Source: an uncultured Verrucomicrobiae bacterium
GTDB lineage: Bacteria; Verrucomicrobiota; Verrucomicrobiia; Palsa-1439
Reading direction: 5' to 3'
Length of the DNA stretch: 64,000 nucleotides
Assembly: GCA_963817685.1 (NCBI GenBank)
Contig: CAWFPN010000022.1
Span: 40,197-104,196 of the forward strand
Shown piece after piece: positions 32,442 through 54,412 of this stretch. The notes beneath the pieces were generated by a model, which was not told the DNA's origin, made no database searches, and saw only the letters and a list, made by a program, of their open reading frames with translations. Both the position numbers and the translations under genes were made by a program. How positions within the stretch are numbered: the stretch's first letter is position 1; each line of letters opens with the position of its first letter.

Positions 32442-32457
32442 AGCACTGCCGATGCCA
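32442..32457 (-). promoter_or_regulatory. sigma54 (-24/-12) promoter of the hypB-F-C-D-E-nifJ operon
   Basis: Minus strand reads TGGCATC-GGCA-GTGCT (GG-N10-GC), ending 20 bp upstream of hypB. Confidence 0.75.
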
Positions 32458-32537
32458 CGGCGGTTGACACATTTACAAGTCATTGTGGCTGTGGTTGTTA
32501 CTCGTTTGACTGGTAGGAAGTCGATTGTCTGAGACAA

Positions 32538-32580
32538 CGACATCATGTCACAGCACAATGGGTCACTGGACAAGTTGTCA
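32538..32580. promoter_or_regulatory. Tandem palindromic enhancer (UAS) pair
   Basis: CGACATCATGTCA (32538-50) and GGACAAGTTGTCA (32568-80), 30 bp apart, about 80-125 bp upstream of the sigma54 site. Confidence 0.75.
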
Positions 32581-32637
32581 ATCGGCCTGTTCGGCGGGTT
32601 ATGACGACGTTTTCGCCTCACTTGAGGCGGGGGGAGA

Positions 32638-34050
32638 TTATTTGCGTTTGGCGGCGCCGCTGGCGTAGGCGGCGGCCTCGACGGCGCGGGCGACGCGGCG
32701 GGCGACCTGTTTGTTGAACACGCTGGGAATGATGTATTCCTCGCTCAACTCGTCCGGTGCGATGCAACCGGCGATGGCTTTGGCGGCCGCGAGTTTCATC
32801 GATTCGTTGATGTCGGTCGCGTGCGCATCGAGCGCGCCGCGGAAAATGCCGGGGAAGGCGAGGACGTTGTTGATCTGGTTGGGGTAATCGCTTCGTCCGG
32901 TGGCGATGATCCGCGCATAGGGCTCGGCGTCTTCCGGGGCGATCTCCGGCGTCGGGTTGGCCAGGGCGAACACGATGGGGTCCTTCGCCATTTTTTTCAA
33001 TGCCGCGACGGGAAACACGTCGGGACCGCTGACACCGATAAACAGGTTTGCCCCGCGCGCGGCGTCCAGGATCGACCCGGAACGGTTTTGGGGGTTGGTA
33101 TGTTCGGCCAGCCAGGCTTTGCTGAAATCGAGGTCGGGCAGCCGTTTCCGGCAGACAATCCCTTTGCGGTCGCAACAAATGATGTGGCGGGCGCCGGCGG
33201 ACTGCAGCATTTTCGTGATGGCGACGCCCGCGGCGCCGGCGCCGACGATGAGGATTTTGACGGTGCTGAGTTTCTTTTTGAGGATCTTGAGCGCGTTCAA
33301 TGCGGCGGCCAGCACGACAACGGCGGTGCCGTGCTGGTCGTCGTGGAACACGGGGATGTCCAGTTCCTTTTTCAGCCGTTGTTCGACCTCGAAACAGCGC
33401 GGGGCGCTGATGTCTTCGAGATTGATCCCGCCGAAGCCGGTGGAAATCCATTTTACCGCGGAGATGATCTCCTCGACGTTCTGGGTCTGGAGGCAAATCG
33501 GGTAGGCGTCGATGCCACCGAACTCCTTGAAGAGCATGGCTTTGCCTTCCATGACGGGCATGGCGGCTTCCGGGCCGATATTGCCCAGGCCGAGCACGGC
33601 GGACCCGTCGCTGACGACGGCGACGGAGTTGTGCTTGATGGTCAGGGAGCCGGCTTTGCGTTTGTCTTCGGCGATGGCCAGGCAGACCCGGGCGACACCC
33701 GGCGTGTAGGCCATCGACAGCGTGTCGCGCGTGGTCAGGGGCACTTTGTTTTGGATGCTGATCTTGCCGCCGAGGTGCATCAGGAACACGCGGTCGGAGA
33801 CGTTGAGCACGGTGACGCCGTTGAGGCGTTTCACGGCGTTGACAATCGATTTGGCGTGCGCGTCGTCGCGGGCGCTGACCGTCAGGTCGCGCACTTTGAA
33901 CTCGCGGTCGGCGCGCACCACGTCCACCGCGCCCGGATCGCCTTGCTGGCGCGCGATGACGTGCAGGAGCCGGGCGAACATGCCCGACACATTCTTGATG
34001 CGCAAGCGCATCGTAAAACTATAACTGACGCTCGGCGATTTCTGGCTCAT
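32638..34050 (-). CDS. NAD(P)-dependent malic enzyme with N-terminal ACT domain
   Basis: ACT-like N-terminus; [62 protein letters not shown]. Confidence 0.93.
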
Positions 34051-34084
34051 GATGCGACCCACCTTGGGGATTCCCCCCGTTCCG

Positions 34085-34459
34085 TCAGCCCGCGCAGGCG
34101 GCTGCCGGCACAGTTGGCGCGGCCAATTCAACAGTCGTCAACTGCAGTTCATCCCCGGAGAGTAGCGCGGCTTTCAGCGAATGGCAACGGGGACATTCAA
34201 ACCAGTTCTGTTCCACGGGAAACACCAGGCGGCAGACGTCGCAGCGGGCGGAGGCGTCGCATTTCTCGATGGCCAGCGTGGAATGTTCCAGCGGCGTTCC
34301 GTTGACCGCCGCGTCATAACAAAACCGCAGCATCTCCGGTTCGATCTGGCGCAGCCGGCCGACGCGCACGCCGACGGTCCGCACTCGCGCGCCGGGATGA
34401 GCGCGCAACTGCTCGTCGACCAACTCGATCAACGCTTCGACGATGGACATCTCATGCAT
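34085..34459 (-). CDS. hypA: Nickel chaperone HypA
   Basis: MHEMSI, CDVC, CPRC. Confidence 0.95.
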   Translation of the reverse strand: MHEMSIVEALIELVDEQLRAHPGARVRTVGVRVGRLRQIEPEMLRFCYDAAVNGTPLEHSTLAIEKCDASARCDVCRLVFPVEQNWFECPRCHSLKAALLSGDELQLTTVELAAPTVPAAACAG

Positions 34460-34931
34460 GGCCGGCCCCGCTGGGGATGTTGCTCCGTGCCTGCAGGGAC
34501 AGAACCAATCGCGTGACTTGCCTGACCACGTCAATGGCCGCCAGTTCCGTGGCGGGCGATAAGGCGGTCCCGAAATTGAAATTCTCCCCGCGAATGCTGA
34601 ACAACGCCGCCCGGGGCAGGCGGTGATACAACGTCTGGCTCAACGCCAGCAGATCGCCGGGCGTGAAATAATGCGTCACCGCATGGCTTTGCAGCGACGG
34701 CGTGACTTCCCGGCGGGTGACGGGTTGCGGACTCTGCGCGGTTGCGGCGTCCACGAACACAATCAGGTCGTAGTGGCTGATGGACTCGGCGAGTTCGACT
34801 TCGAGCTGCTGGGTGATCAGGAACTCGGTGTTGGCCAGGCCTGCCTTCTCCAATTGTTCGACGACAAACCAGCCCGCGCCGTCGTCGGAGCGGCTGCGGT
34901 TCCCATAGCCGATGACGAGCACCTGCTTCAC
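34452..34931 (-). CDS. Hydrogenase maturation protease (HoxW-like)
   Basis: LVIGYGNRSRSDDGAG, VFVDA, conserved His (VTHYF). Confidence 0.9.
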   Translation of the reverse strand: MKQVLVIGYGNRSRSDDGAGWFVVEQLEKAGLANTEFLITQQLEVELAESISHYDLIVFVDAATAQSPQPVTRREVTPSLQSHAVTHYFTPGDLLALSQTLYHRLPRAALFSIRGENFNFGTALSPATELAAIDVVRQVTRLVLSLQARSNIPSGAGHA

Positions 34932-36377
34932 TTAAGCGCCTCCGTCGCGCTGCAACGTCTGCAGCAGGTTGCCTTGTGCGTCGAGCAGGTCCACCAGCAG
35001 CGGCATCTGGCCGACCGCGTGCGTCGAGCAGGACAAGCAGGGATCATAGCAGCGAATCGCCGCCTCGACGCGGTTTAACATTCCCTCCTGCAACTGATGG
35101 GACTTCACGTATTTTTCAGCGACGGCCTTGACGGCGCGGTTCATGGCGAGGTTGTTGTGGCCGGTGGCGACGATCAGGTTCACCTTCTCAACGCGCCCGT
35201 GCTCGTCCACCCAATAATGATGGAACAAGGTGCCGCGCGGCGCCTCGATCACGCCCACACCCTGCTCGTTGGCCGGGGTGGCGTTGACCACAATCTCCGT
35301 GCCGCAAATAGCGGGGTCTTCCAGCAATTGCTGGATGCGCTCCAGCGCGCACACGATCTCGATCAACCGCGCCCAGTGATAGTAAAACGAGCTGTGCCGC
35401 GGCGGGATGCGCGGTGTGCGCCACTCCTGCAACTCCGCGTCCGCCAGCGGAGTGGAAATCCGGTCCACTACGTTCAACCGCGCCAGCGGGCCGACGCGAT
35501 ACAGGCCGTCGGGATAGCCGAGTGACTTGATGAACGGGAATTTCAGGTACGACCAGTCCTCCGTCGTCTCGGCAATCACGTCAAGGTAGTCGGCCGGTTT
35601 GACCTGGTCGGCGATGACGTTGCCTGTTGTATCGCAGAAGCGCAACTGGCCGTCGTAATGTTCCAGCGAGCCGTCGGCCCGCACCAGCCCCATGAAGCTG
35701 GAGTCGAACGACGCGAATTCCTCGACCTCCCGCAAATTGTCCCGTTGATATTTCTTCAACAATTCGAGCGCGAACTGCGCATGCTGCATCGCTTCCGGCA
35801 GGCCCGCCAGCATCGCTTCGCGGTCGGCGGCGGCCAGCGCCTTGTTAACGCCGCCGGGCACGGGGAAGTCCGCGTGGATCTTGCGGCCGCCCGTGCGCTT
35901 GATGACTTCCTGGCCGAACTGGCGCAGCCGGATTCCGCGCCGGGCAATGTCGGGATGTTGCTGGATCAGGCCCATCACGTTGCGCAACGCCGGGTTGCTG
36001 TCGAAGCCAAGCAGCAAATCCGGGGCGCTGAGATGGAAGAAACTCAAGGCATGCGACTGGGTGATCTGTCCCATGTGCAGCAACTCGCGCAACAGTTTCG
36101 CCGTGCGCGGAATATCGACGCCGAGAATCGCATCGCAGGCCTTCGCGCTGGCCAGCAGATGGCTCACGGGGCAGATGCCGCAGATGCGCGCGGTGATTTG
36201 CGGCATCTCGGCGAAAAACCTGCCTTCGCAGAATTTTTCAAACCCGCGGAATTCGACCACGTGGAACCGCGTGTCCGCCACGTTGCCCGCGTCGTCGAGG
36301 TGGATGGTGATTTTCGCGTGCCCCTCGATGCGGGTCACGGGATTGATCGTAATCGTCTTATTGTTGGTCTCAGTCAT
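34932..36377 (-). CDS. hoxH: Group 3 [NiFe]-hydrogenase large subunit (HoxH/HydL-like)
   Basis: PVTRIEGH, L1 [16 protein letters not shown]2 [10 protein letters not shown] plus a cleavable C-terminal extension. Confidence 0.95.
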
Positions 36378-36916
36378 AACGCATGTTGGTTGTATCCCAT
36401 TGCGGCGCGCGGCCCGCCAGCAACTCGGTCAGCGCGTACCAGATCGCGTCGGCATCCGGCGGACAGCCGGGAATATGGGCGTCCACCTTCACAAATTCCT
36501 GGATCGGCCGCACCTTGGCCAGCAGCTTCGGCACTTCGGGTGCGTGCGGCACTTCGCCCACCTGGGTGCTTTCCGTTTCGACATAACCCGCGCTCGAGCA
36601 CGTCCTGCAGCTTCTGGCAATTGCGCAGGGCCGGGATGTTGCCCGAGATCGCGCAATCCCCGAGCGCGATGAGCACTTTGCATTGCGCCCGCATTGTGCG
36701 CAACACGTGTTCGTTCTCCTCGTTGCAGACGGCGCCCTCAACGATGCCCACGTCCACCGGCGGGATTTCCTTCACGTCGGTGATCGGGCTGGCGGTGAAC
36801 TCGACCAGCTTCGCCAGGTCGATCAGACGCTCGTCCAGGTCCAGAAACGACATGTGGCAGCCCGAACAACCGCCCAGCCACGCCGTCGCCACTTTGATTT
36901 TCGGTTTGTCGCTCAT
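36370..36916 (-). CDS. hoxY: [NiFe]-hydrogenase small subunit (HoxY/HydS-like, single FeS cluster; frameshift near 36588)
   Basis: [20 protein letters not shown] in one frame; IPGCPP in the next frame. Confidence 0.9.
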
Positions 36917-38736
36917 GTAAAAATGGTCTCCAGAATGGCCGCGTCCTCGCGCGCCTGGCCGTGCGGGGGCAGGGCCGCGCGCAACGGCAGGACCCGTCCT
37001 TCGAAGTTCGTGGTGGAACCGTTTTTCTCCGACCAGACCGTCGATGGCAGCACCACCCGGGCAACGTCTGTCAGGGCCGATTGGTAGGCGGCCTGCACGA
37101 CGACGCAATCGATCTGCTCCAGCATCGCGCGCACGTGCCGTTCTTTCAGGATCTGCGCACCGCCGGCAGACTCGTCACCGGCGACGATCTGCAGGAAATT
37201 CAGCGGCTGCACGCCCAGCCACGTCGAGATGTCCTCGACGGCTTCGATCCCGGCGGCCGCCAGGGCGAGACTGTTGGTGCCCGTGGGCAACTGGATCGGC
37301 GCCAGCATCGCGCCTCCGTTGCCGCCGGCGGCGAGCGTCTCGATGAGCCGGTCGAGAATTGTGATCCCGACCGGCGTCATCGCGGTCGGCCCATAGATCA
37401 ATACGGGCCGCTTCGTCTGGGACAGCACCTCACCCAGGTGGTTCCAGAATTTTCGTTCCAGGCTGACGACTGGCGCGGAAATATCGGCGTAGGTGTCGAG
37501 GTCGCCCCGGCGCGATTCGAGGACCACGAGCTTGGCGCCGCGTTTGCGCACCGCCGTGCGGATCTTCGCCGCCACCACCCCGTGCGTGCGGCTTGGATCG
37601 GCGCCGATCAGGATGATCGCGTCGGCGTCCTCCAGCCGCCGCAAACTGTCGGGCGAAAACTCCGGTGTGCCGCACAACGCCGCCTCCTTGTCCGCCACGA
37701 ACATGCCGATGCGGTCGAAGTGGACGCCGATTGTCTGCAGCGTGCCGATCGTCTGATTCGTCACCCGCGGTGAAATCAACAGCGCTGTTTCCCAATCAAT
37801 CGCCTCGCGGATCGCCTGGCGCACGACGCCCAGCGCTTCGTCCCAGGTGGCCGGTTTCAGTTTGCCGCCCTGGCGCACCAGCGGCCCCAAAATGCGCCGG
37901 CGCGGTTCGGCCCAGGTGCCGTAACGGCCTTTGACGCAAAGATGGCCGCGATTCACGTCCGACGCGGGGTCGCCAAACACGTCGACGACGCGGTTGTCTT
38001 TCGTGTACACGACCAGTCCGCACCCGACCGGGCACTCGATGCACGTGGTCCGGGTCTGCTGGCATTTGGCGAGCGGGCCGTGAAACGCCGCCGCCTTGTC
38101 GAACAACGCCCCGGTCGGACAGGCCGCGACGCACGCGCCGCAGAGCGTGCAGGAGGTGGACGCGCCGAAGGTGCTGTTCAAATCGATGATGATCTGGTTC
38201 TTCACGCCGCGGTAACCGATGTCGAGGGTGTGGACGCCTTCGATCTCGTCGCAGGTGCGGACGCAGCGCGTGCAGAGAATGCAGCGGTTGTGGTCCAGCC
38301 CGAAATACTTGCCCGAGACGTCCTGCGGCAGCACCGGGTAGAGATAGGGATACCGGATCGCGTCGATGCCGGCCTTGTAGCCCTGTTGTTGCAGGTCGCA
38401 ATCGCCCTTGTTCATCGGGCAGATCGGGCAGAAATGGTTGCGTTCGCTGAAGAGCAACTCCAGCGTCAGCCGGCGCAACTGTTGCAGGCGCGGGCTGTTG
38501 GTGGTGATCGTGTTGCCGTCCACGGCGGGTGTCGCGCACGAAGGAACGACCTTGGGACTGCCCTTGATTTCCACGATGCACATGCGGCAGCCGCCCCATG
38601 GCGTGAGGTGTTTCATGTAGCACAGCGTGGGGATTTCGATGCCGTTGGCTTGGGCGATTTGCAAAATGGTCTGGCCCTGCGCGCCCTTGCACGGTTTGTC
38701 ATCAATCGTCAGGGTGATTTCCTTGGGAGCGATCAT
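36913..38736 (-). CDS. HoxU-like FeS subunit fused to a cofactor-less FdhF/NuoG-like domain (HydA of HydABCSL type), 607 aa
   Basis: PTLC..GGCRMC..PSC [2Fe-2S]; NHFCPIC..DC; CILCTRCVRTC; CTLCGACVAACP; CIECPVGC..LCVKGR; degenerate molybdopterin-oxidoreductase-like C-terminus (VVLPSTVWSEKNGSTTNFEGR); no H-cluster motifs. Confidence 0.85.
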   Translation of the reverse strand: MIAPKEITLTIDDKPCKGAQGQTILQIAQANGIEIPTLCYMKHLTPWGGCRMCIVEIKGSPKVVPSCATPAVDGNTITTNSPRLQQLRRLTLELLFSERNHFCPICPMNKGDCDLQQQGYKAGIDAIRYPYLYPVLPQDVSGKYFGLDHNRCILCTRCVRTCDEIEGVHTLDIGYRGVKNQIIIDLNSTFGASTSCTLCGACVAACPTGALFDKAAAFHGPLAKCQQTRTTCIECPVGCGLVVYTKDNRVVDVFGDPASDVNRGHLCVKGRYGTWAEPRRRILGPLVRQGGKLKPATWDEALGVVRQAIREAIDWETALLISPRVTNQTIGTLQTIGVHFDRIGMFVADKEAALCGTPEFSPDSLRRLEDADAIILIGADPSRTHGVVAAKIRTAVRKRGAKLVVLESRRGDLDTYADISAPVVSLERKFWNHLGEVLSQTKRPVLIYGPTAMTPVGITILDRLIETLAAGGNGGAMLAPIQLPTGTNSLALAAAGIEAVEDISTWLGVQPLNFLQIVAGDESAGGAQILKERHVRAMLEQIDCVVVQAAYQSALTDVARVVLPSTVWSEKNGSTTNFEGRVLPLRAALPPHGQAREDAAILETIFT

Positions 38737-40586
38737 GCCGGCACCCCTCCTGCCATGGGTTCTTCCTGCGGTTCCTGTGTGTGCACCCGGCCGGGCGACG
38801 TCTTCTTGACCGCGCCGAACAGGCAGGCGTCGAAGCAGGCCCCGCACTGGATGCATTTCGAGGGATCCAGGTGGAATTTCTTCTGGCCTTCGACCTTGTG
38901 AATGGTCTGCGCCGCGCAGGCGCGCGCACACAGCGAACAACCTTTGCAAAGCGGCTGGTCGATCTCAAAATGCAGCAGGGACCGGCAGACGCGCGCGGGG
39001 CAACGCCGGTCGAGAATGTGCGCCTCGTACTCGTCGCGGAAATAGCGCAACGTGGTCAGCACCGGATTCGGCGCCGTCTGGCCAAGCCCGCACAGGCTGG
39101 TGTCCTTGACCATCGCCGCGAGATCTTCGAGCTTCCGAATGTCATCCATCTCGCCCTGGCCCGAGCAGATGCGGTCAAGGATGTTCAACATCTGGCGGGT
39201 CCCGACGCGGCAGGGAGGGCATTTGCCGCACGATTCATCGCAGCAGAATTCCATGAAGAACCGCGCCACGTCCACCATGCACGAATCCTCGTCCATCACC
39301 ACCAGGCCGCCCGACCCCATGATCGAGCCCAGCTGTTGCAGCGTCTCGTACTCGATCGGCGTATCGAGGTGCTGTTCGGGGATCACGCCGCCCGATGGGC
39401 CGCCGGTCTGCACCGCCTTGAATTTCTTGCCGTTGGGAATGCCGCCGCCGACGCTGAAAATCATCTCGCGCAACGTGGTGCCGTAGGGCATCTCCGCCAC
39501 GCCGGTGTTGTTGATCTTGCCGGCCAGGCAGAAGACCTTTGTCCCCTTGGTCCGTTCCGTGCCAATGGCGGCGAACCACTTCGCGCCTTTGAGGATGATC
39601 GGCCGGATCGTGGCCCAGGTCTCCACATTATTGATATTGGTCGGCTTGCCCCACAGCCCGCGTTGGGCCGGGAAGGGCGGACGCGGTTGCGGCTGGCCGC
39701 GGCGGCCTTCGACGCTGCGCATCAGCGCCGTTTCTTCGCCACAGACGAATGCGCCCGCGCCGATGCGGACCTCCACGTCGAAATCAAATCCGCTCTCGAA
39801 CAAATTTTTGCCGAGCAACCCGTACTTGTAGGCCTGTTCGATGGCGATGTGCAGGCGTTTAACGGCCAGGCCGTACTCGGCCCGGATATAAATGAACCCG
39901 CGGCTGGCCCCCATCGCGCGCGCGCCGATGGCCATGCCCTCGAGCACGCTGTGCGGGTCGCCTTCGAGCACCGAACGGTTCATAAACGCGCCGGGATCGC
40001 CCTCGTCGGCGTTGCAGACGACGTATTTGGGAAATTCGGGCGCCTGGCGCATGATCTCCCACTTCTTGCCCGTCGGGAACCCCGCGCCGCCGCGGCCACG
40101 CAAGCCGCTGGCCTTGATCTCTGCGATGATCTGCTCGGGTGTCATCGACGTCAGCACCTTGCCCAGCGCGGTGTACCCGTCCCGCGCGATGTACTCCTCG
40201 ATGTTCTCGGGATTGATAATGCCGCAGTTGTCGCGCACGATGCGCATCTGGCGGTTGAAAAAGGTGAAATCGGCCTGTGTCAGCACCGCGTTCTGCGTCT
40301 GCGGGTCCAGCGGCAGCAGTTTCGCGTACGGCCGGCCCTTCAGGAAATGCTCCTCCACCAGCTTCGGCACCTCGGCAGCCAGCACGTTCCTGTAAAACGT
40401 GCCGTCGGGATGCACCAACGATACCGGACCGAGGTCGCACCGGCCCATGCAGCCGGTCTCGACGATTTCGATTTCGTCTTCGAGCCCGCGCTTCTTCAAT
40501 TCCGCCCGCAACGCGTCACGCGTGGCGAGACTGCCGCAGCTGGTGCAGCCCGTGCCCGTGCAAACCAGGAAATGCGTGCGAATCAT
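38733..40586 (-). CDS. NADH/FMN-binding subunit, HydB/HndC/NuoF-type with C-terminal 2x[4Fe-4S]
   Basis: N-terminal CTGTGC..CMGRC; GLRGRGGAGFPTG; NADEGDPGAFM; GGPSGG; ESCGKCPPCR; HILDRRCPARVC; CKGCSLCARAC; CIQCGACFDAC. Confidence 0.93.
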   Translation of the reverse strand: MIRTHFLVCTGTGCTSCGSLATRDALRAELKKRGLEDEIEIVETGCMGRCDLGPVSLVHPDGTFYRNVLAAEVPKLVEEHFLKGRPYAKLLPLDPQTQNAVLTQADFTFFNRQMRIVRDNCGIINPENIEEYIARDGYTALGKVLTSMTPEQIIAEIKASGLRGRGGAGFPTGKKWEIMRQAPEFPKYVVCNADEGDPGAFMNRSVLEGDPHSVLEGMAIGARAMGASRGFIYIRAEYGLAVKRLHIAIEQAYKYGLLGKNLFESGFDFDVEVRIGAGAFVCGEETALMRSVEGRRGQPQPRPPFPAQRGLWGKPTNINNVETWATIRPIILKGAKWFAAIGTERTKGTKVFCLAGKINNTGVAEMPYGTTLREMIFSVGGGIPNGKKFKAVQTGGPSGGVIPEQHLDTPIEYETLQQLGSIMGSGGLVVMDEDSCMVDVARFFMEFCCDESCGKCPPCRVGTRQMLNILDRICSGQGEMDDIRKLEDLAAMVKDTSLCGLGQTAPNPVLTTLRYFRDEYEAHILDRRCPARVCRSLLHFEIDQPLCKGCSLCARACAAQTIHKVEGQKKFHLDPSKCIQCGACFDACLFGAVKKTSPGRVHTQEPQEEPMAGGVPA

Positions 40587-40964
40587 TTATTTCTGCTCCG
40601 GTTCCTTGATCTTGCCGACGGCCAGGCCGTCGACGACCTTGCCCTTTTCCAGGTGCTCCGAGACGATCTGGCGCGCGGCGGCGGCATTGACCTTCGCGTA
40701 GGTGACCTTTTCCCCCGACGCGTCCTCCACCCGGATCACCGGCTCGGCATCGACCAGCCCGATCTCGCCCGTGACGGCGACTTCCACGTTCTCGATGCCG
40801 CGTTTGTCGAGTTCATCGAGCATGGAGGTCATCACGTCCCGCGCTCCGGCGGCGATGCCGCTGGTGCCCATGCTGAACACCACGCGGTACTTCTTGTTGC
40901 CTTCACGCAGCGCGACGTGACGTTGCGCCTTTTCTTTGAGTTTTTTGAGTTCGTCGAGGTTCAT
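40587..40964 (-). CDS. Thioredoxin-like ferredoxin homolog (HydD/HndB-like) lacking all cysteines
   Basis: MGTSGIAAGARDV..TGEIGLVDAEP..VTYAKV..IVSEHL matches the family pattern MxTCGIAAGA..TGCIGxC..EP, with Cys replaced. Confidence 0.8.
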   Translation of the reverse strand: MNLDELKKLKEKAQRHVALREGNKKYRVVFSMGTSGIAAGARDVMTSMLDELDKRGIENVEVAVTGEIGLVDAEPVIRVEDASGEKVTYAKVNAAAARQIVSEHLEKGKVVDGLAVGKIKEPEQK

Positions 40965-41424
40965 CGTGTCTCCCTTCCTGTGAGCTGAAATGAAACGTCT
41001 GGCCGTTGGAACGGTAGTGCAGTTGCACGTCCACATCCTGGCGGGCGCACAACGTGAGAATGGTGGCATTGAGGTCGCCCAGCGGCGGCCGGTCGATGTG
41101 CGAATAGCGCATCGAGGCCGTCACCGACGTGCCCCGGCCCGGCGCGGAGCGGACGTGGAACGTTCCGCCGCACATTTCGGAAGTCTGCCGCAAAAACGCC
41201 AGCCCCAGGCCGATGGCTTTCAATCGGCTTTTCTTGCTGGTCCGATTAAAGTTGAGCACCTCGCGCAATGTCCGGGCGTCCATGCCCTTGCCGTCGTCGC
41301 GGATGCGGATGATCAGCCAGTCGCGCCGGATGTCTTCGATCACCACGACCTGCAGCGTCTTCGCCCCGGCGGCCAGTGAATTCATGCCGATGTCCAGGAT
41401 GTGCAGCGAGAGTTCTTCAAGCAT
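40903..41424 (-). CDS. Stand-alone histidine-kinase-like ATPase (HATPase_c); 3' end uncertain
   Basis: ELSLHILDIGMNS, IRDDGKGMD, IGLGL, SHIDRPPLGD, as in hyd/hnd operon accessory genes. Confidence 0.85.
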   Translation of the reverse strand: MLEELSLHILDIGMNSLAAGAKTLQVVVIEDIRRDWLIIRIRDDGKGMDARTLREVLNFNRTSKKSRLKAIGLGLAFLRQTSEMCGGTFHVRSAPGRGTSVTASMRYSHIDRPPLGDLNATILTLCARQDVDVQLHYRSNGQTFHFSSQEGRHDEPRRTQKTQRKGATSRRAA

Positions 41425-41995
41425 ACTTCTTCAACTCCTTCTGGCAAAAACGCGGGATCTTGTCGGGCGTGAGCTTGCCGTACACGTCGTCGCCGACGGT
41501 GATGGCCGGCGCCAGCGCGCAGGCGCCGATGCAGCGGGCCGTTTGCAGGCTGAACAACCCGTCCTTGGTCGTTTCGCCGTGGGCGATGCCGAGTTGCTGG
41601 CCGAGCCGTTCGACGACCGTGGCGGCCCCGCGCACGTGGCAGGTCGTGCCCGTGCAGACCATGATCTGGTATTTGCCGCGCGGCACGACAGAGAAGAAAT
41701 TGTAGAATGTAGTTACTCCATAGACGTGGGCCAGCGGCAGCTTCATGGCCGTGGCGACGTAACGCAGCACGTCGGGCGCTAGATAACCGAACGTGTGCTG
41801 CGCGGCGTGCAACACCTGGATCAGCGCCGTCGGTTCGTAGTTGTAATGCTGCAGCGTCTGGTCGAGCGACGCGAAGCGTTGGTCGCCGCTCGGATGGTGC
41901 GGCAGCATCGGCGCGGTGGACGGGTTCGCGGTGAGCGTGCCCGGCTGCGGCGTGATCGATGCCGTGGCGCTGGCGGGTGTCGTGGTCTCACTCAT
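41417..41995 (-). CDS. [2Fe-2S] subunit HydC/HndA/HoxE/NuoE-type
   Basis: LIQVLHAAQ..FGYL, VYGVTTFY, CTGTTCHVRG, RCIGACALAP. Confidence 0.92.
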   Translation of the reverse strand: MSETTTPASATASITPQPGTLTANPSTAPMLPHHPSGDQRFASLDQTLQHYNYEPTALIQVLHAAQHTFGYLAPDVLRYVATAMKLPLAHVYGVTTFYNFFSVVPRGKYQIMVCTGTTCHVRGAATVVERLGQQLGIAHGETTKDGLFSLQTARCIGACALAPAITVGDDVYGKLTPDKIPRFCQKELKKYA

Positions 41996-42353
41996 GGTCG
42001 TTCTCCCCTCGCAGTCCGGCCTCCCAGAGTTTGCCCGCCGCTTCGTAAGTGGTCAGCGGTGTGGTCAGCAGCGCGATTCCTTCCTGCTCCGCCTCCGCGA
42101 CGATCTCCGCCTCCGGTTTTCGTCCGCAGGTGAAGAGCACCGCCGTGATGTCCTTCGTGGCCGCGACGGAGACGACGTTGCGGTGCGTCTGGATGGTGAC
42201 CCAGAGCATGCCCGGCCCCGCGTGCGCCAGCACGTCGCTGAGCAGGTCCGAGATGTAGCAGCCCGTCAGCAACTCCGGCACGGCATCGGTCAGCGGTTCG
42301 GCCTGCAGCATCGCGATCAGCGTCCTGGACTTGACCGGCAATTGTATTTTCAT
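41988..42353 (-). CDS. DRTGG-domain protein
   Basis: GCYISDLLSDVLA, LWVTIQTHRNVVSVA, TTYEAAGKL. Confidence 0.85.
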   Translation of the reverse strand: MKIQLPVKSRTLIAMLQAEPLTDAVPELLTGCYISDLLSDVLAHAGPGMLWVTIQTHRNVVSVAATKDITAVLFTCGRKPEAEIVAEAEQEGIALLTTPLTTYEAAGKLWEAGLRGENDHE

Positions 42354-43275
42354 GAGGGTGCTCCCGCTTGGCGCAGGTAAATTTCCGAGCGCAACCGCGT
42401 TCCGCGTTTGCCGTCCGAGGTAATGGTCAGCTTGTCCGAGCAGCGCTTGATGTTGGGCAATCCCATGCCCGCGCCGAAGCCGAGTTCACGCGGCAGGCGG
42501 CCCGCGGTGGACCAGCCTTCCTGCATGGCCTGGTCGATGTTCTCGATGCCCGGCCCGGTGTCGATCGCCTCGATCACCACCTTGTCGGGACCGATGGTGG
42601 CGATGATCTCGCCGCCGAGCGAATGGATGATGATGTTCGTCTCCGCTTCGTAGGCGACGACGGCGGCCCGGCGGCGGATTTCCGGGTCGATGCCGCGGTC
42701 GCGCAGACCTGGCGCATGCGCTGCGAGACTTTGCCCGCGCTGTCGTAATCGCCCGTGCGCACGTGCGCGCGGACGACCACGCGTTGGGCGGCTTCGTCAT
42801 CGGCCCGGGAGGCGCGCAGCACGGCTTCGTGGGCCAGCGCTTCCTCGGCGCGCCGTTCGAGGTGATGCATCAGGCAGCCGGTGATGTCGCCGCGGGTAAT
42901 GACGCCGACCAGCCGGTCGTTGCCGTCGAGCACGGGAAAACGGCCGAACTCATGCCGGTCGAATTCCGCCACGGCGCGCACCAGCGAAAAATGGTCGCGG
43001 AGCGCGACACGACGTTGCGGGCCATGCGTTGTTCGGCGGGCTCATCGATATAGCCCTTGTCAAGCGCGCGGATGATGTCTTCGATGCTGACGATGCCGAG
43101 CAAGTGTTTCGCCGTCGATCATGGGCACCCCGGAGAACGCGGCGCGCTTTCATCAGCATGCTGGATCGTGCGCAGCGAATCGGACGGAGCTGGCGGTGAT
43201 CGGCGGACTTGCTCATGGCGTCGCGCACGCGCAATTCATAGACGAGGATCTGGGCGACCGAGATTTTTCGCGCAT
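42350..43275 (-). CDS. CBS-domain plus RsbT/RsbW-like Ser/Thr kinase (several frameshifts)
   Basis: Fragments: LRVRDAM, GIVSIEDII, GRFPVLD..LVGVITRGDI; DTGPGIENIDQAMQEGWST..GFGAGMGLPNIKRCSD. Confidence 0.8.
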
Positions 43276-43295
43276 CGCCCGCGCCGGCGGATTGC

Positions 43296-45541
43296 TCAGA
43301 TGGCGGGCGCGGTGGTGCATCGCGGGTCTCCTAGGGTCGGCGGCGCCTCCGCGGCGAGCGCCATGCGGACGTCGGCCACGTGTGCGCCTTTGCCCTGCGC
43401 ATGGACGATGAGCGGGTTGATGTCCAGTTCGGCGATCTCGGGAAAATCGATGACGAGTTGCGAAAGACGCTCCAGACAATCGGCAATGGCATCGATATCG
43501 GCCGGCGGCTGACCGCGGAACCTCTCGAACACTTTGGCCGCGCGGATCGAGTTGATCATGTTGCGGGCGCCGAGTTCGCGGATCGGCGCCAGGCGGAAAC
43601 TGACGTCCTTGAGCACTTCGACGTACGTGCCGCCCATGCCGAACATGATGATGTGGCCGAAGGCGGGGTCCTTGCTGATGCCCGAGGATCACCTCGACGC
43701 CGCGTGCCGGCCATGGCTTCGACTTCCACGCCGAGGAGCCGCGCACTGGGTAGTTTTTGTTTCACCCCGTTTGTGATTTTTTCATAACCCAGCACGGGCT
43801 TCCTCGGCGTGGAAATATTCAGCAGCACGCCGCCGACATCGACCTTGTGGACGACGTCGGGCGAAGCAATTTTCATGGCGACGGGTCCGCCGATCTTTTC
43901 GAACAACGCGGCGGCCTCGTCTTCGCTCTTGGCCAAAGCGTGTTGGAGCACGCGGGAAACCATAGGCCTTCAACACGGCCAGCGCTTCGGCTTCGGGCAG
44001 GAACGTGCGGCCTTCGCCGCGGACCTTGGCGAAAATCTCGCGCACGGCGTTCTTGATCGACCTCGAAATGGCGCTCCTGGGTGCGCGGGCGCGTGCAGCC
44101 ATTGCGTGTAGCGGCACATGGCGCCCGAGCGAGCGGGACGCGTTCTCGGGAAACTCGTAGTTGGGGACGCCGTATTGCTCGAGGATGCGAACGCCGGCGG
44201 ACACGTCCACGTGGCCGAGGAACGAGGCGAGCACCGGTTTCTTGCTGGGCGGCGCAATCTCGCCGATCGTGCCGCGCGATGGCCTCGATTTCGGTCATGG
44301 ACTGCGGCGTGAGCAGAACCACCAGCCCGTCGACGTTCGGGTCGCCGAGCACGGCTTCGAGAGCGGCCGTCGTAGCGATCGCAGCGTGGCGTCGCCGATG
44401 ACGTCGACGGGATTAGAAAAGTTCGCGGTCGGAGGCAGCTTCGCCTTGAGGGACTCGAGTGTCTCGGGTCGCAGTTTGGCGAGCTCGAGTCCATAACGGA
44501 TGGCGGCATCGGTGGCCATGATGCCGGGTCCACCCGCGTTGGTGACGATGGCGAAGCGGTTGCCTTTGGGCAACGGCTGGCGTGAGAACCCGACCGCGAA
44601 GTCGAAGAGTTCTTCCACAGTGTCAACGCGCAGGATGCCGGCCTGCGCGAAAATGGCGTCGTAGACGGCGTCGCTGCCGGCCAGCGCGCCGGTGTGGGAA
44701 CGGGCGGCGGCGGCGCCTTGCTGGGTCCGGCCGGATTTGATGGCCAGGATCGGTTTGCGATGGGCGAGTTCGCCCGGTGATCTCGCGAGCCAGATCAATG
44801 AAGGCCCGGCCGTCGGCCAGCGTTTCCAGGTACATCAAGATCACGTCGGTGCGTCGTCGGTCGGCCAGATAACGCAGCAAGTCCATGTTCGGTCGACGTC
44901 GGCCTTGTTGCCGACGCTGATGAATTTCGAAAAACCGATGTCGCGGCCCCGGGCGTAGTCCAGGATGCCCGCGCAGAGCGCGCCGCTTTGGGACACGAAA
45001 GCGATGTTGCCGTGTTTGGGCATGCGCGCGGGCGAAACTGGCGTTGAGCATGATGTCGGCGATCGGTGTTGATCACGCCCAGGCAGTTCGGGCCGACCAG
45101 CGGCATGTGATAACGCTGGCCAATGGCGATGATGCGTTGTTCCAGTGCGGCGCCTTCCGGGCCGATTTCCTTGAATCCCGCGGTCACGATCACCGCTCCG
45201 CGCACGCCTTTCTGGCCGCATTCCTCCAGCACTTCCGGCACAACGTTGGCGGGGACGATGATCAGGGCCAGGTCGATTTCCTGCGGGATGGCGGAGATGC
45301 TGGTGTAGGAGTGCACGCCGCAAATGGACGGGGCCTTCGGATTGACGGGATAGAGTGTGCCGCAGTAACCGCCCATCAGGATGTTCTTGAAAATGGCGTT
45401 GCCGACGCTGCCTTCGCGGTTCGAGGCGCCGATGACGGCGATGGATTTCGGCGAGAAGATTGGCGCGAGCCGATCCAACTCAGCGGCAGGCGCGGCTGCT
45501 TGCTTAGATGTCTTTTCCACTGGTATTGCGCATGTAGTCAT
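43296..45541 (-). CDS. Acetate-CoA ligase (ADP-forming), fused alpha/beta (many frameshifts)
   Basis: PKSIAVIGAS, YPVNP, GPNCLG, SQSGAL, ARSHTGALAGSD, TNAGGPG, NPVDV, KIASPDVVHKVDVGGV, FGMGG, ELDINPL across frames. Confidence 0.88.
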
Positions 45542-45645: not shown

Positions 45646-45718
45646 ACAGATGTTGTCCTCTTCGACGGGAAAGCAGGACAAAGTGTCACCAGTGCTGGAA
45701 AATCCGGACAGTTTGTCA
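45646..45718. promoter_or_regulatory. Tandem palindromic UAS pair plus an in-phase half site
   Basis: GGACAAAGTGTCA (45676-88) and GGACAGTTTGTCA (45706-18), 30 bp apart; TGTCC half-site at 45654-58, a further 30 bp away. Confidence 0.75.
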
Positions 45719-50171: not shown

Positions 50172-50475
50172 TGTAGGCCGGGTCACCTGACCCGGCGCGC
50201 CTTGCTCTGTCCCTCCCCACGCTGTCACCCCGAGTTTCGCCCGAAACAACACAGTCGCGTCTCGCGGACTCGGTTTGTCGAGGGGTCTCTTCCGTGCCCT
50301 ACAGAACAACAGAGACTTGCCCCGAAAGCTTTCGGGGTGAACCTCGACAAGCTCGGCATGACAAAACGGCCCAAACGCTTGCAGGATGGCGGGAATGTGC
50401 TACCGTACCGGGCAGTATGACATATGCAGCGAGAATAGGCCGGGCGTCCGCCTACGCCGAGGCTACGGCGGACAG
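50172..50475. repeat. Cluster of REP-like hairpins
   Basis: GTAGGCCGGGTCACCTGACCCGGC (50172); TGTCACCCCGAG...CTCGACAAGCTCGGCATGACA (50223-50363); GTCCGCCTACGCCGAGGCTACGGCGGAC (about 50446-50473). Confidence 0.7.
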
Positions 50476-50642
50476 GGTGTCCGGAGCTGCCGGGGCAAAA
50501 GGGCGGGGACCGTTCCCGGCAGGCGCGGCTTGCCGGGAGGCTCGCCCTCCAGACGGCCCGGCAAGGTGTGCCAATTTGGCGCAGTTTCCGTACGCGGGAG
50601 GCTTCCAGCGTGGTCAAACCTTCAGCCGCCGAAATGGCCCAA

Positions 50643-50828
50643 AAGTCCAGGCTAGTCAAACCTTGTCAAACCTAGTCAAACCAAGTCCGACCTTAAATTT
50701 TCGGGCCGGATCCGCCTTCGCCAAGGCTACGGCGGGCACGACGGCGGACAAGGTGACCGTCCGTGCAGTCCGTGTCCGTCCTGATCCGACCCAATACGGC
50801 CTAATACGACCTAATACGGCCTTAAATT
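50643..50828 (+). repeat. Composite 10-bp-period repeat element with a nested 42-bp hairpin insert
   Basis: 5 x TAGTCAAACC-like + TTAAATT; insert 50708-50749; GTCCGT linker; 4 x AATACGGCCT-like + TAAATT; inverted copy at 62207-62352. Confidence 0.9.
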
Positions 50829-50857
50829 GTCCAAGGAGGGGGGTGGGGGCTGGGGGA

Positions 50858-50886
50858 TTGACAATTTGTCAGGGGGTACATAGGCT
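50858..50886 (+). promoter_or_regulatory. sigma70 promoter overlapped by a perfect TGACA-N3-TGTCA operator
   Basis: TTGACA(50858)-17 bp-TAGGCT(50881); TGACAATTTGTCA at 50859-50871. Confidence 0.75.
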
Positions 50887-50896: not shown

Positions 50897-52441
50897 ATGG
50901 CACCTTCCGAGCGTGAGACGCGGTTGCGGTTTTTGAGCCTGACGGAGCATGACCAGGCTTTGCTCAAGGCTTTAAGGCCCTTGCTGGAGCAGCACGTCAC
51001 GGCCATCGAGGACGCGTTTTACGAGCATCTGCTGCAGTTCCCAGAAGCAGCGCAATTGCTGCGCGACCGCACCACGGTCGAGCGGCTGAAACACTTGCAG
51101 CGCGAATACCTGCTGCGGCTTACGGACGGCGTGTACGACGACAAGTATTTCGCCGACCGGTTGCGCATCGGCCAGGCCCACGAACGCGTCGGGTTGTCGC
51201 CCCGCTGGTATCTGCTGGCCTACAGCCATTACTTCAAACTGATCACCCCGCTGATCCGCGCCCATTACGCCAACGATCCCGCCCGCGCCGACGATTCGGT
51301 GCTGGCCCTGGAAAAGGTGTTCATGCTCGACGCCTCGCTGGCGATGGACGCCTACATCGAGAGCGACCGTTACCGCCGCCTGCGGCAATTGGAAAGCATC
51401 GTCAACGATTCCGCCGACGTCATCTTCGCCCTGGACAACGAACTGCGGTTCCGCTCCTGGAACCGCGCGGCGGAACGCATCTTCGGCTGGCGCGAAGCGG
51501 ATGTCCTCGGCAACTCATTCACCATGCTGATGCCGCCGGAGCTGGTCCAGGCCGGCGAGATGGAACGCATCGATCGCCACGTGGACAAGGAAGGCTATTA
51601 CCATTTCGAGACCGTGCGGCTGGCCAAGGACGGCCGCCGCGTGCCGGTCGAGGTGACGGTGTCGCTGCTGCGCGATCCGCAGGGCAACATGATCGGGCGG
51701 TCGGCCATCCTGCGCGACGTCACCGAACGCAAGGCCCTGGAAGAGGAAAAACTGCGGGCGGAACGGCTGGCGGTGATCGGCACAATGTCGGCCCGGCTGG
51801 CCCACGAGATCCGCAATCCGCTCAGCTCGATCACGCTGAACATCGACCTGGTCGGCGACGAGATTGGCACGTTGGCGAAGGACAAACAGAGCGACGCCGA
51901 GGAAGCGCGATCGCTGCTGCGGTCCATCGACTCCGAAGTGCGCCGCATCCAGCGGGTGACGGAGGATTATCTGCAATTCGCGCGCCTGCCCAAACTGCAC
52001 CACGACATGGTCTCGCTCAACGAGATCCTCAGCCAGGGCGTTGCCTTCATGCAATCGTTGTTCGAAGCCACCGGCGTGACCGTGGAGACGGGCCTCGACC
52101 CGTCCGTGCCGTCGATCCACGCCGACGAAGGCCAACTCTGGCAGGCGATCCTGAACCTGATCCGCAACGCGCTGGAAGCCATGCCCAAGGGCGGCGCGCT
52201 CACGATCCGCACGTCGTTCGAGAAATCGACCATCGTCCTCACCGTCGCCGACACGGGCAAGGGGATGACCGAGCACGAGCGCGAACAGATTTTCAAACCG
52301 TTTTTCAGCACCAAGGTCGGCGGCACGGGCCTGGGATTGCCGCTCACCCAACAAATCATCACCGAACACGGCGGCCGCGTCCAATGCGAAAGCGTGCAAG
52401 ACCGCGGCACCACGTTTGTGATAGAATTGCCGGTGAAATAG
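50897..52441 (+). CDS. Globin-coupled (protoglobin/HemAT-type) PAS histidine kinase
   Basis: Globin: AFYEHL (B10 Tyr), RIGQAHERVGL (proximal His); PAS: WNRAAERIFG..KDG; H-box LAHEIRNPL; NLIRNALEA, DTGKGM, GTGLGL. Confidence 0.92.
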   Translation: MAPSERETRLRFLSLTEHDQALLKALRPLLEQHVTAIEDAFYEHLLQFPEAAQLLRDRTTVERLKHLQREYLLRLTDGVYDDKYFADRLRIGQAHERVGLSPRWYLLAYSHYFKLITPLIRAHYANDPARADDSVLALEKVFMLDASLAMDAYIESDRYRRLRQLESIVNDSADVIFALDNELRFRSWNRAAERIFGWREADVLGNSFTMLMPPELVQAGEMERIDRHVDKEGYYHFETVRLAKDGRRVPVEVTVSLLRDPQGNMIGRSAILRDVTERKALEEEKLRAERLAVIGTMSARLAHEIRNPLSSITLNIDLVGDEIGTLAKDKQSDAEEARSLLRSIDSEVRRIQRVTEDYLQFARLPKLHHDMVSLNEILSQGVAFMQSLFEATGVTVETGLDPSVPSIHADEGQLWQAILNLIRNALEAMPKGGALTIRTSFEKSTIVLTVADTGKGMTEHEREQIFKPFFSTKVGGTGLGLPLTQQIITEHGGRVQCESVQDRGTTFVIELPVK

Positions 52442-52451
52442 GGAGCAGAGA

Positions 52452-53816
52452 ATGGCCAGACGCGCGGACATATTGTTGGTCGACGACGAGGAGGCGCTGT
52501 GCACCGCCGCGGAGAAGATCCTCGTCAAGGAAGGCTACCGCGTCACCACGGTCAACACCGCCCAGGACGGCCTGGCGAGGTTTGAAACCGAAGGCGCCGA
52601 CCTGTTGATCACCGATTTGATGTTGCCGGACATGGACGGCATTTCACTGTTGAAGCGCGCCAAGGAACTGCGGCCGACCGTCGAGGTGATTGTCATCACC
52701 GGCCACGGCACGGTCGAGAAAGCCGTCGAAGCGATGCGGCTGGGCGCCTATGATTTCATCGAGAAACCGCTCGACCGGGCCGCGTTGATGAAGGCCGTGA
52801 GCAAGGCGGTGGAGAAACAACGCCTGGCGGCGGAAAACCGGGAACTGCGCGAACAACTCCAGCAGCAGCGCGGCGAAGACGCCTTGATCGGCGCCAGCGC
52901 CCCGATGGTCGCGCTGAAGAAATTGGTCCGCCAGATCGCGACCACCGATGTCACCATTCTCATCCAGGGCGAAAGCGGTTCGGGCAAGGAAGTCGTCGCC
53001 GACGTGATCCACAGCCTCAGCCCGCGCGCCGACAAGGCGATTGTGAAGATCAGTTGCGCGGCCATTCCGGAAACGCTGCTGGAAAGCGAACTGTTCGGCT
53101 ACGAGCGCGGCGCGTTCACCGGCGCGGGAAACACCAAGCAGGGAAAATTCGAGCTGGCCGACGGCGGCACGCTGTTCCTGGACGAGATCGCCGAGATGAG
53201 CACGCAGTTGCAGGCCAAACTGCTGCGGGTCCTGCAGGACGGACGGTTCCAGCGGCTCGGCAGCACGCGGGACATCCAGGTCGACGTGCGCGTCATCAGC
53301 GCCACGCACGTGAACATCCCGCAGGCCATCGCGGAAAACAAATTCCGCGAAGACCTCTATTACCGGCTCAACGTCGTCCACGTCGGACTGCCGGCCTTGC
53401 GCGAGCATCCGGAGGATATCCCGTTGCTGGCCGATCATTTCCTGAAGAAATACGCGGCCCGGATGCAGAAGGACGTGCGCGGCATCGAGCCGGCCGCCAT
53501 CGAGCAGTTGCTGGCCCATTCCTGGCCAGGCAACGTGCGGGAATTGGAGAACTCCATGCAACGCGCCCTGGCGGTGTGCACGGACGACACGATCCGCAGT
53601 TTTCATCTCATCGCGCCCATCGCCAAAGGCCAGGCAGGCGGCGGGCCGACCGGCCCGACGGTGACGATCCCGATTGGACTGCCCTTGGGCGAGGCGGAAG
53701 AGCGCATCATCTCCGAGACATTGAACCAATGCGGCGGCGACAAGGAGAAGGCGGCCCGCCTGCTGGGGATCTCCTCGCGGACCCTCTACCGACGCTACTC
53801 GAAGGACGAACCCTGA
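52452..53816 (+). CDS. sigma54-dependent response regulator (NtrC/AtoC family)
   Basis: REC (LVDDE, ITDL), [33 protein letters not shown], Fis-type [14 protein letters not shown]. Confidence 0.96.
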
Positions 53817-53828
53817 CGGCGAGTCGAG

Positions 53829-53871
53829 TGCCAAATTGTCGGTTTCGCCCCGGTTCGCTGACATTGTGACT
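53829..53871. promoter_or_regulatory. Tandem degenerate UAS pair
   Basis: TGCCAAATTGTCG (53829-41) and TGACATTGTGACT (53859-71), 30 bp apart. Confidence 0.65.
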
Positions 53872-53952
53872 GGCCTGCGCCGCGGCAGGCGGTCGGCGAT
53901 GTTCTTTCCAATCATCCGCCTTTTCAACGCGTTATGACTTTGGCGATTGTCG

Positions 53953-53968
53953 TGGCATCCGTGGTGCT
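53953..53968 (+). promoter_or_regulatory. sigma54 promoter of the stand-alone receiver gene
   Basis: TGGCATC-CGTG-GTGCT (GG-N10-GC), almost identical to the hypB promoter. Confidence 0.75.
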
Positions 53969-53980
53969 AGCGCATAAGCC

Positions 53981-54412
53981 ATGGCCACCAATCTGCCAGC
54001 CGCCAAGGGCAAGATCATCCTGCTCGTCGACGATGATACGGAACTGCTCAAGGCGTTGACGAAGGTCCTGGAGAAGGAGAACTACGAGGTGGTCGCGCAA
54101 CCCGACGCAGTCAGCGCGATCAAGCTCGTGAATTCGTCACAGCAGAAGTTCGACCTCGTCATCACCGACGTGTCCATGCCCGGCATGAAGGGGACGACCT
54201 TCCTGGCGGCCGTGAAGACGGCGTTTCCCGCCGTGCCCGTGATCGTGATCACCGGCTTCGGCGATTGGGGCCAGTACATGGAGGCCCTGCGCGAAGGCGC
54301 TTTTGAGTACCTGAGCAAACCCCTCGACAAGTCCGCCTTGTTGTCCACCGTGCAGCGCGCGCTCATCAACGGGACGAAGCCCAACAATCACAAAACGGCC
54401 GCTCCCAAGTAG
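53981..54412 (+). CDS. Single-domain response regulator
   Basis: LLVDDD, VITDVSMPG, VITGFG, YLSKP; no output domain. Confidence 0.92.
   Translation: MATNLPAAKGKIILLVDDDTELLKALTKVLEKENYEVVAQPDAVSAIKLVNSSQQKFDLVITDVSMPGMKGTTFLAAVKTAFPAVPVIVITGFGDWGQYMEALREGAFEYLSKPLDKSALLSTVQRALINGTKPNNHKTAAPK

Follow-up and report, generated by a model that had tools for sequence, protein, structure and literature searches.

We found that a 64,000-nucleotide stretch of an uncultured Verrucomicrobiota genome (C22:40197-104196, hereafter the window; the genome comprises 3.99 Mb in 29 contigs and is 88% complete) carries a locus coding for a globin-coupled sensor histidine kinase, an adjacent NtrC-type sigma-54 activator and a stand-alone receiver domain. 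Tandem palindromic sites upstream of sigma-54 promoters occur at this locus, at two neighboring operons with hydrogenase genes, at further operons across the genome and in other genera of the same order. That these cis-elements define a real, conserved sigma-54 regulon is nearly certain, and the arrangement of genes and sites makes it probable that the globin-kinase/NtrC circuit controls this regulon in one Verrucomicrobiota order. Judged by its predicted products, the theme of the regulon is the whole anoxic energy module, beyond H2 fermentation. Few globin-coupled histidine kinases have a known physiological output; here the predicted output can be read from conserved cis-elements, as about ten operons that form an anoxic energy metabolism.

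The regulatory locus and its paired palindromes

The gene calls of the initial annotation for the globin kinase, the NtrC-type regulator, the lone receiver, HypB and acd were confirmed by Pfam and NCBIfam domains. The locus and the two operons that share its sites are as follows:

50897..52441, + strand: globin-coupled sensor histidine kinase (protoglobin 7-157, PAS 164-279, HisKA 296-364, HATPase_c 410-513)
52452..53816, + strand: NtrC-family sigma-54 activator (Response_reg 7-116; Sigma54_activat 145-311, E 1.5e-70; HTH_8 412-448)
53981..54412, + strand: stand-alone receiver of 143 aa (Response_reg; acceptor residues intact)
22456..32421, - strand: hyp/PFOR operon, with hypB, hypF, hypD, hypE, pyruvate:ferredoxin oxidoreductase (PFOR; two open reading frames, ORFs) and a dihydroorotate-dehydrogenase-like gene
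32638..45541, - strand: acd-hox operon, with acd, CBS, HATPase_c, DRTGG, HoxE, HoxF, HoxU-like, HoxY, HoxH, HypA and malic enzyme

The activator has the complete domain set of the NtrC subfamily, with GAFTGA visible in the alignment, and the H-box of the kinase, AHEIRNPL, is conserved. The acd gene codes for an ADP-forming acetyl-CoA synthetase, whose CoA-binding N-terminus was found, and is broken into several frames in the assembly. The sigma-54 promoters that the initial annotation placed before hypB, acd and the receiver gene are present there, each preceded by a tandem upstream activating sequence (UAS), and a single palindrome lies at the kinase promoter:

32443-32457, - strand: predicted sigma-54 promoter of hypB, TGGCATCGGCAGTGC(T), of the TGGCA...TGCT type
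45560-45574, - strand: predicted sigma-54 promoter of acd, TGGCAAGGCCGCTGC(T), of the TGGCA...TGCT type
53953-53967, + strand: predicted sigma-54 promoter of the receiver gene, TGGCATCCGTGGTGC(T), of the TGGCA...TGCT type
32539..32579, - strand: UAS of the hyp operon, exact sites GACATCATGTC and GACAAGTTGTC, 30 bp apart
45647..45717, - strand: UAS of the acd-hox operon, exact sites at 45677 and 45707 and a weaker in-phase third at 45647; overlaps the 3' end of a GNAT gene
53830..53870, + strand: UAS of the receiver promoter, GCCAAATTGTC and GACATTGTGAC, 30 bp apart; starts 14 nt past the ntrC stop
50859..50871, + strand: single perfect palindrome TGACAATTTGTCA, overlapping the TTGACA -35 of the kinase/ntrC operon

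The three window promoters (TGGCATCGGCAGTGCT, TGGCAAGGCCGCTGCT and TGGCATCCGTGGTGCT) have -24 GG and -12 GC elements at canonical spacing (TGGCAC-N5-TTGCW-like). Taken by itself, a loose TGG-N9-TGC match is uninformative, as there are 69 in the window versus 47.9 expected. Exact GACA-N3-TGTC occurs seven times in the window, versus a mean of 0.89 in 100 shuffles, none of which reached seven. Its starts are 32539, 32569, 45677, 45707 and 50860, together with singletons at 33716 and 50471; four of the seven thus form two pairs (32539/32569 and 45677/45707), each exactly 30 bp apart. The spacing of 30 bp, as previously described, holds at all three sigma-54 promoters and the hypB and acd sites are exact, but the word palindrome is slightly generous for the receiver pair (53830/53860), in which each site has one mismatch within the eight core positions. 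The distance of 81-82 bp to the -24 element, given earlier for hypB and the receiver, was measured as 81 nt from the proximal core (32539) to TGG (32457) and 82 nt from the proximal site (53870) to TGG (53953), and at acd the gap from the proximal exact site to the -24 element is 102 nt. The perfect palindrome over the -35 of the kinase/ntrC operon likewise lies where it had been reported, in a sigma-70-like promoter (TTGACA-N17-TAGGCT), with 26 nt from its last base (50871) to the ATG (50897), and we propose TGACAATTTGTCA as a candidate autoregulatory operator.

The sigma-54 promoters lie close to their genes: from the last base of the -12 TGC to the ATG there are 21 nt at hypB (32421-32443), 18 at acd (45541-45560) and 13 at the receiver (53967-53981). 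With transcription starting about 11-12 nt after the GC, these distances of 13-21 nt leave predicted leaders of only about 2-10 nt, which suggests near-leaderless translation or mis-set start codons.

A sigma-54 regulon across the genome

Genome-wide, pairs of sites with at most one mismatch per site peak at spacings of 30 bp (seven pairs) and 31 bp (four), and elsewhere in the range of 15 to 60 bp no spacing exceeds two pairs, save 15 bp (four) and 41 bp (three). Ten of the 15 pair rows with at most two mismatches in total and a spacing of 29-31 bp, representing nine promoters, have a correctly oriented TGGC-N8-TGC downstream. Counted from the promoters, 10 of the 117 TGGCA-N7-TGC[ATG] matches in the genome have a pair within 200 nt upstream, versus 0-2 in six controls (downstream region, 0; reversed motif, 0; spacings of 19-21 bp, 0; 24-26 bp, 2; 35-37 bp, 1; 40-42 bp, 1), which places the motif pairs of the initial annotation above background. 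The proximal site starts 91-94 nt from TGG in seven of these ten promoters (full range 91-116 nt, with pairs 29-31 bp apart). The gene for sigma-54 itself, rpoN, is present (DNA-binding domain, E 3e-49, at C13). The predicted members of the regulon are:

hydrogenase maturation genes and PFOR (hypB promoter, window)
acd and Hox hydrogenase, HypA and malic enzyme (window)
stand-alone receiver (window)
NapC/NirT-like multihaem cytochrome
c554-like cytochrome, ResB, HemA, cytochrome c assembly protein (CcsA) and multihaem cytochrome
porin-like protein, GltD-like FeS flavoprotein, cytochrome b and multihaem cytochrome c
radical-SAM protein, with haem b synthase AhbD as best match; cut by the contig end
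2-oxoacid:ferredoxin oxidoreductase (OFOR)
two operons of small proteins, function not assigned

The initial annotation had read the sites as marking a regulon for fermentative H2 metabolism. The hydrogenase and PFOR operons do carry them, but the sites are not specific to that pathway, being found also before AhbD, cytochrome c biogenesis, multihaem cytochromes, a cytochrome b/c module and a second oxidoreductase.

Conservation of the paired sites in the order

The comparison set consisted of 47 genomes of the order, in which kinase loci were located by tblastn (30 promoter loci, 26 short and 16 longer loci, and 34 loci for residue checks). Across these genomes the paired pattern GACANNNTGNC-N18-20-GACANNNTGNC gives 290 strand matches versus four for the pattern read backwards. 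A full-length globin kinase, at 59-73% identity, is found in 40 of the 47, and all 40 have at least one match to the pattern. The globin domain was absent from 300 sampled Verrucomicrobiota genomes outside the order, where all 15 matching genomes matched the PAS part only.

Upstream contexts were read for 20 match regions of five genomes, and motif pairs upstream of orthologous operons were found among them. In three other genera, pairs precede orthologues of hypB, acd, hoxE, ahbD, c554-resB-hemA, hemA and the NapC-like gene. The pair is accompanied by a sigma-54 promoter upstream of ahbD in G009, G021, G025, G022 and G023, of hypB orthologues in G009, G021 and G025, and, in single genomes, of acd (G025), hoxE (G021), c554-resB-hemA (G025), hemA (G009) and the NapC-like gene (G009). 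The remaining regions comprise three pairs without a recognised neighbor and a second G009 region, at a distant AhbD paralogue, with a pair and no promoter match. In 6 of the 16 long kinase loci, acd orthologues are preceded by near-identical promoters with exact pairs.

These data bear on the possibility that the palindromes have no regulatory role and arose by chance or as parts of a dispersed repeat. Such an origin is suggested by the presence of TGACAAWTTGTCA-type palindromes at 21 places in the genome, several judged to be in repeated contexts, and by the make-up of the 900 bp upstream of the kinase, a mosaic of short repeats that are dispersed through the genome in up to about 90 copies. 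However, the shuffle, spacing, orientation and reversed-pattern controls all go against it, the distance to the sigma-54 promoters is fixed, the sites are kept before orthologous operons in other genera while their spacer letters vary, and the kinase promoter segment 50849-50896 matches nowhere else in the genome. We regard this explanation as exceedingly improbable, and the controls refute it for practical purposes. For the kinase-promoter palindrome in particular, derivation from a dispersed repeat was rejected on the uniqueness of its segment and its retention in relatives that lack the repeats. Within the mosaic itself (window 50129-50830), 'gtcaaacc...' repeat units match as many as about 90 other places and 'cctaatacggccttaaa' about 57, and TGACAAWTTGTCA-type palindromes recur beside the same repeat units at other loci.

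The activator that reads the sites

From the gene and site arrangement, the globin-linked NtrC is likely to be the protein that binds the paired sites. An exact TGACA-N3-TGTCA lies over the kinase -35 in 23 of the 30 orthologous promoter loci, with a variable 3-nt spacer, and one further promoter has it with a single mismatch. In 17 of the 26 short loci a pair starts no more than about 15 nt from the ntrC stop codon, and the order kinase, ntrC, pair with sigma-54 promoter, receiver is seen in 13 of the 16 long loci, the three without the pair also being without the receiver. Because both the operator at its own promoter and the UAS behind ntrC are conserved, the motif is tied to the globin-linked NtrC, and the connection that the initial annotation drew between the motif and the kinase/NtrC/receiver locus is upheld. 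The helix-turn-helix (HTH) core of NtrC is conserved in eight of the nine orthologues listed (the other reads GVSSRTLQRR), which fits a conserved motif.

Alternatively, the tandem sites could be a real sigma-54 enhancer read by a different activator, for example one universal in the order, with the globin pair merely near some of the targets. The genome holds ten true sigma-54 activators, and the HTH closest to that of the globin-linked NtrC, with 48% identity over this region, is found in the C27:10957 type. This alternative draws further on two genomes of one genus, g11 (G022 and G023, 94% complete), which have the following sites:

G022:C4:16970 and 34706; G023:C1:8094 and C12:22105 (L065-L068): orphan enhancer pairs of g11

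At ahbD the pair comes with a perfect sigma-54 promoter, the other pair is at c554-resB-hemA, and the universal C10:684666 type of activator is on the same contig as both G022 sites. In neither genome was an NtrC orthologue (best 41-42% identity), a globin domain or a matching HTH (best 43-44%) detected, and their hypB lies behind a hydrogenase gene without sites. Here, either another activator reads the sites or the regulator locus is unassembled. The activator types present in every genome (C10:684666 and C27:10957) are, moreover, not separated by distribution.

Several other observations also weigh against control by the globin-linked pair. In genus g2 and family f2, kinase-bearing genomes show only one or two pattern matches; G035 has eight matches and no kinase was found in it (the genome is 59% complete); and six of the 30 kinase promoters keep only TTGACA, without the right half of the palindrome. 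G033 (no matches) and G044 (one match) are also without AhbD and HypB, and since these targets are missing too, their scarcity of sites lends no independent support. Many frameshifts in the assembly (acd, PFOR, the C20 sensor kinase and rpoN) mean that single-base details of the sites may be imperfect.

What speaks against a different activator is the position of the motif in the kinase operon promoter and directly behind ntrC. No exact palindrome was found at the C10, C27 or C20 activator loci. Among sites with at most one mismatch at these rival loci, only C20 has two about 30 bp apart, and they lie inside a cytochrome ORF. The C20 type lacks an orthologue in 17 of the 47 genomes, including G021, G027, G030 and G037, which are 90-91% complete and have 7-10 pattern matches. 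The universal types are present in G007 and G033, which have no pairs, though G033 lacks two of the targets too. At the positions that we take to be the base contacts of enteric NtrC, this NtrC has 'SR' and the C27 type 'MA', which we count, tentatively, against a different activator. On balance we consider a different reader of the sites unlikely.

The C20 activator, which lies 7 kb and 16 kb from two of the targets, was examined as a candidate binder and rejected because of its distribution and because its locus holds no exact palindrome. It belongs to a second two-component system (G000:C20:2000-9700; L001 1-7700), made up of a membrane sensor kinase and a sigma-54 activator 42% identical to the globin-linked NtrC, which adjoins MtrC-like and doubled-CXXCH multihaem cytochromes and an NrfD-like gene. 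This system probably governs a separate respiratory regulon beside the two palindrome-regulon targets.

The nearest paralogue of the stand-alone receiver in the genome is the receiver domain of the globin-linked NtrC (41% identity, E 9e-21; the next reaches 3e-16). This paralogy fits a putative role as a competitor or phosphate sink, with which the suggestion made for this protein in the initial annotation is compatible.

The sensor globin and its signal

The sensor globin is a clear member of the Protoglobin family (Pfam E 1.5e-42), fused N-terminally to the transmitter domain, and its match to the Geobacter sensor globin and HemAT (E about 1e-16) is stronger than that to AfGcHK (1.4e-8). Its Tyr42 and His95 align with AfGcHK Tyr45 and His99, which serve, in the available portion of the AfGcHK study, in O2 recognition and as the proximal ligand, respectively (PMC8697598). 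The same residues align with HemAT positions 70 and 123, as counted in the alignment, and both are invariant in 34 of 34 loci. The predicted haem ligands are thereby retained in the globin, and the signal is likely to be O2 or another haem ligand.

A variant that leaves the circuit as described takes its physiological signal to be something other than O2: NO, CO or haem redox state sensed through the globin, or a ligand or redox cue sensed through the PAS domain, which lies between globin and kinase and has no assigned ligand. Globin-coupled sensors bind several diatomic gases, and the regulon includes NapC/NirT-like and c554-like cytochromes, which belong to nitrogen-oxide metabolism in other organisms. 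Moreover, the Fe(III) and Fe(II)-CO forms of AfGcHK are also active, according to the text available from that study (PMC8697598). On the other hand, the globin invariably has the distal Tyr and proximal His that are typical of sensor globins binding O2, oxygen-sensitive enzymes and haem synthesis without oxygen predominate in the regulon, as expected of an O2 switch, and the Myxococcus analogue responds to hypoxia in the sections available of its description (PMC11841059). We judge a signal other than O2 to be rather unlikely.

Proposed circuit and its polarity

We posit that a signal passes from the cytoplasmic haem-globin/PAS histidine kinase (50897-52441) to the NtrC-type activator encoded next to it (52452-53816), which would bind two palindromes of 11-13 bp, (T/C)G(A/C)CA-N3-TGTC(A), spaced 30 bp center to center, with the proximal site starting about 92 nt upstream of a TGGCA-N7-TGC sigma-54 promoter. 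Bound there, the activator would turn on an oxygen-sensitive anoxic energy module. Two feedbacks are predicted: the single site over the kinase/ntrC -35 could mediate autorepression, and the sigma-54-driven stand-alone receiver could compete for the kinase phosphate. The latter would act as negative feedback if phosphorylated NtrC is the active form and as positive feedback if the unphosphorylated form is active.

The polarity of the signal is less straightforward. In what is available of the AfGcHK study, that kinase is active with O2 bound (PMC8697598). An oxy-active kinase coupled to a conventional, phospho-activated NtrC would have the anaerobic regulon switched on in air, which counts against the circuit in that form, as the predicted content of the regulon argues for expression under anoxia. 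Anoxic expression would call for either a deoxy-active kinase, as in FixL, or an oxy-active kinase, as in AfGcHK, combined with an activator that is active when unphosphorylated. FixL is the model of a deoxy-on kinase, and HoxA and HupR are activators whose unphosphorylated form is active. A bolder proposal would make the globin kinase/NtrC pair a one-step, order-wide master switch between oxic and anoxic states for the entire energy module (H2 metabolism, PFOR/OFOR, the Ahb haem route, cytochrome c biogenesis and multihaem respiration), with an oxy-active kinase, an active unphosphorylated activator and a receiver that drains phosphate, giving positive feedback and bistability; this we regard as tentative and somewhat doubtful.

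Relationship to known systems

The initial annotation knew of no described globin-kinase-sigma54 control of a hydrogenase/PFOR pathway; as a general statement on globin-kinase-sigma-54 control this is wrong, given the precedent of NmpRSTU in Myxococcus xanthus (PMC6211767, PMC11841059). In the portions of these papers available to us, the protoglobin kinase NmpU acts via the hybrid kinase NmpS on the NtrC-like NmpR, which autoregulates the nmp genes and counts a CBS protein, HemN and a cbb3 oxidase module among its targets, and the dual-receiver protein NmpT is proposed as a phosphate sink (PMC6211767, PMC11841059). NmpR binds GCGCA-N5-TGCGC pairs before sigma-54 promoters, with sites 14-15 bp apart (PMC11841059). 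On this partial account, the two systems share a pathway that runs from a haem-protoglobin kinase at the top to an NtrC-like sigma-54 activator, paired dyad sites before sigma-54 promoters with autoregulation (binding and autoregulation are predicted here), an oxygen-related regulon that takes in a CBS-domain gene and oxygen-independent haem synthesis (by HemN there and AhbD here), and an extra receiver protein proposed as a phosphate sink. Unlike in NmpRSTU, the kinase and NtrC are adjacent here, the kinase has an extra PAS domain, and the sink would be a single receiver under predicted sigma-54 control. The operator also differs, being GNCA-N3-TGTC with 30 bp from start to start versus, in the text available, GCGCA-N5-TGCGC with 14-15 bp between sites, and so do the phylum and the predicted regulon, which is anaerobic here (hydrogenase, PFOR/OFOR and multihaem cytochromes) versus the high-affinity oxidase and motility reported there. 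At the locus, which is where we looked, no NmpS-like hybrid receiver-kinase or dual-receiver NmpT was found here or in 13 of the 16 long loci.

AfGcHK of Anaeromyxobacter sp. Fw109-5 partners with a non-NtrC response regulator. As described in the accessible text, it resembles the present kinase in having a sensor globin with proximal His and distal Tyr fused to HisKA/HATPase, and differs in being without a PAS domain; sequence similarity is weak (PMC8697598). Its regulon in Anaeromyxobacter is given as still unknown in the available part of PMC11841059.

Among regulators of hydrogenases, no regulatory [NiFe] hydrogenase (HoxBC/HupUV) was seen among the annotated window genes, with no genome-wide search made. 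HoxA/HoxJ/HoxBC of Cupriavidus, HupR/HupT/HupUV of Rhodobacter and FhlA of E. coli exemplify NtrC-family control of hydrogenase structural and maturation genes; their signals are H2 via a regulatory hydrogenase, or formate, and their regulons are not known to extend beyond hydrogenase genes. The system described here likewise has an NtrC-family regulator for hydrogenase genes, as predicted, and is unlike them in its haem-globin sensor and wider regulon. FixL/FixJ of rhizobia is a haem O2-sensor kinase system that switches on microoxic/anoxic respiration and related genes, in which the haem is in the PAS domain of FixL and FixJ is a LuxR-type sigma-70 activator. With it, the present locus has in common a haem-based sensor kinase, as predicted here, whereas its haem domain is a globin and its activator works with sigma-54. 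FixL/FixJ is mentioned in the accessible part of PMC11841059, and sigma-54 control of hydrogenase genes is noted for Proteobacteria in that of PMC12316311.

Our literature search turned up the NmpRSTU papers, but none that describes control of hydrogenase or PFOR by a globin kinase, or a system of this sort from Verrucomicrobia. The concept is already in print from Myxococcus; the operator, the direct kinase-NtrC pairing, the anaerobic regulon and the phylum differ. The host order is little-studied and uncultured, known from soil and wetland metagenomes, and the locus offers a defined operator (GNCA-N3-TGTC, two copies, 30 bp apart) and a compact three-gene circuit with two predicted feedbacks, of which signal polarity poses a clear, testable question. 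Its target genes could also serve as a set of markers from which to predict the conditions under which these bacteria ferment, produce or consume H2, and respire with multihaem cytochromes.

Other features of the window and genome

Between the acd UAS and the kinase operon lie cydAB, the GNAT gene and an ACT-domain gene. No exact palindrome was found in the 72-bp divergent promoter region of cydAB (46399-49001, cytochrome bd oxidase), and for this reason this high-affinity oxidase seems to be outside the regulon.

Several conserved genes are broken: acd (43353-45541) has at least five stops or frame changes relative to an intact 740-aa orthologue, PFOR (23487-27067) is split at about residue 240-268, the C20 sensor kinase (L001 887-2408) is split in two and rpoN (G000:C13:44260-44739) has one in-frame TGA. 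These look like assembly indel errors rather than decay. Within the acd-hox operon, small HATPase_c, DRTGG and CBS genes are interleaved (40903-41424 and 41988-42981, - strand), and the HoxU-like subunit (36913-38949, - strand), of 678 aa, has a NuoG-like molybdopterin-type C-terminal domain.

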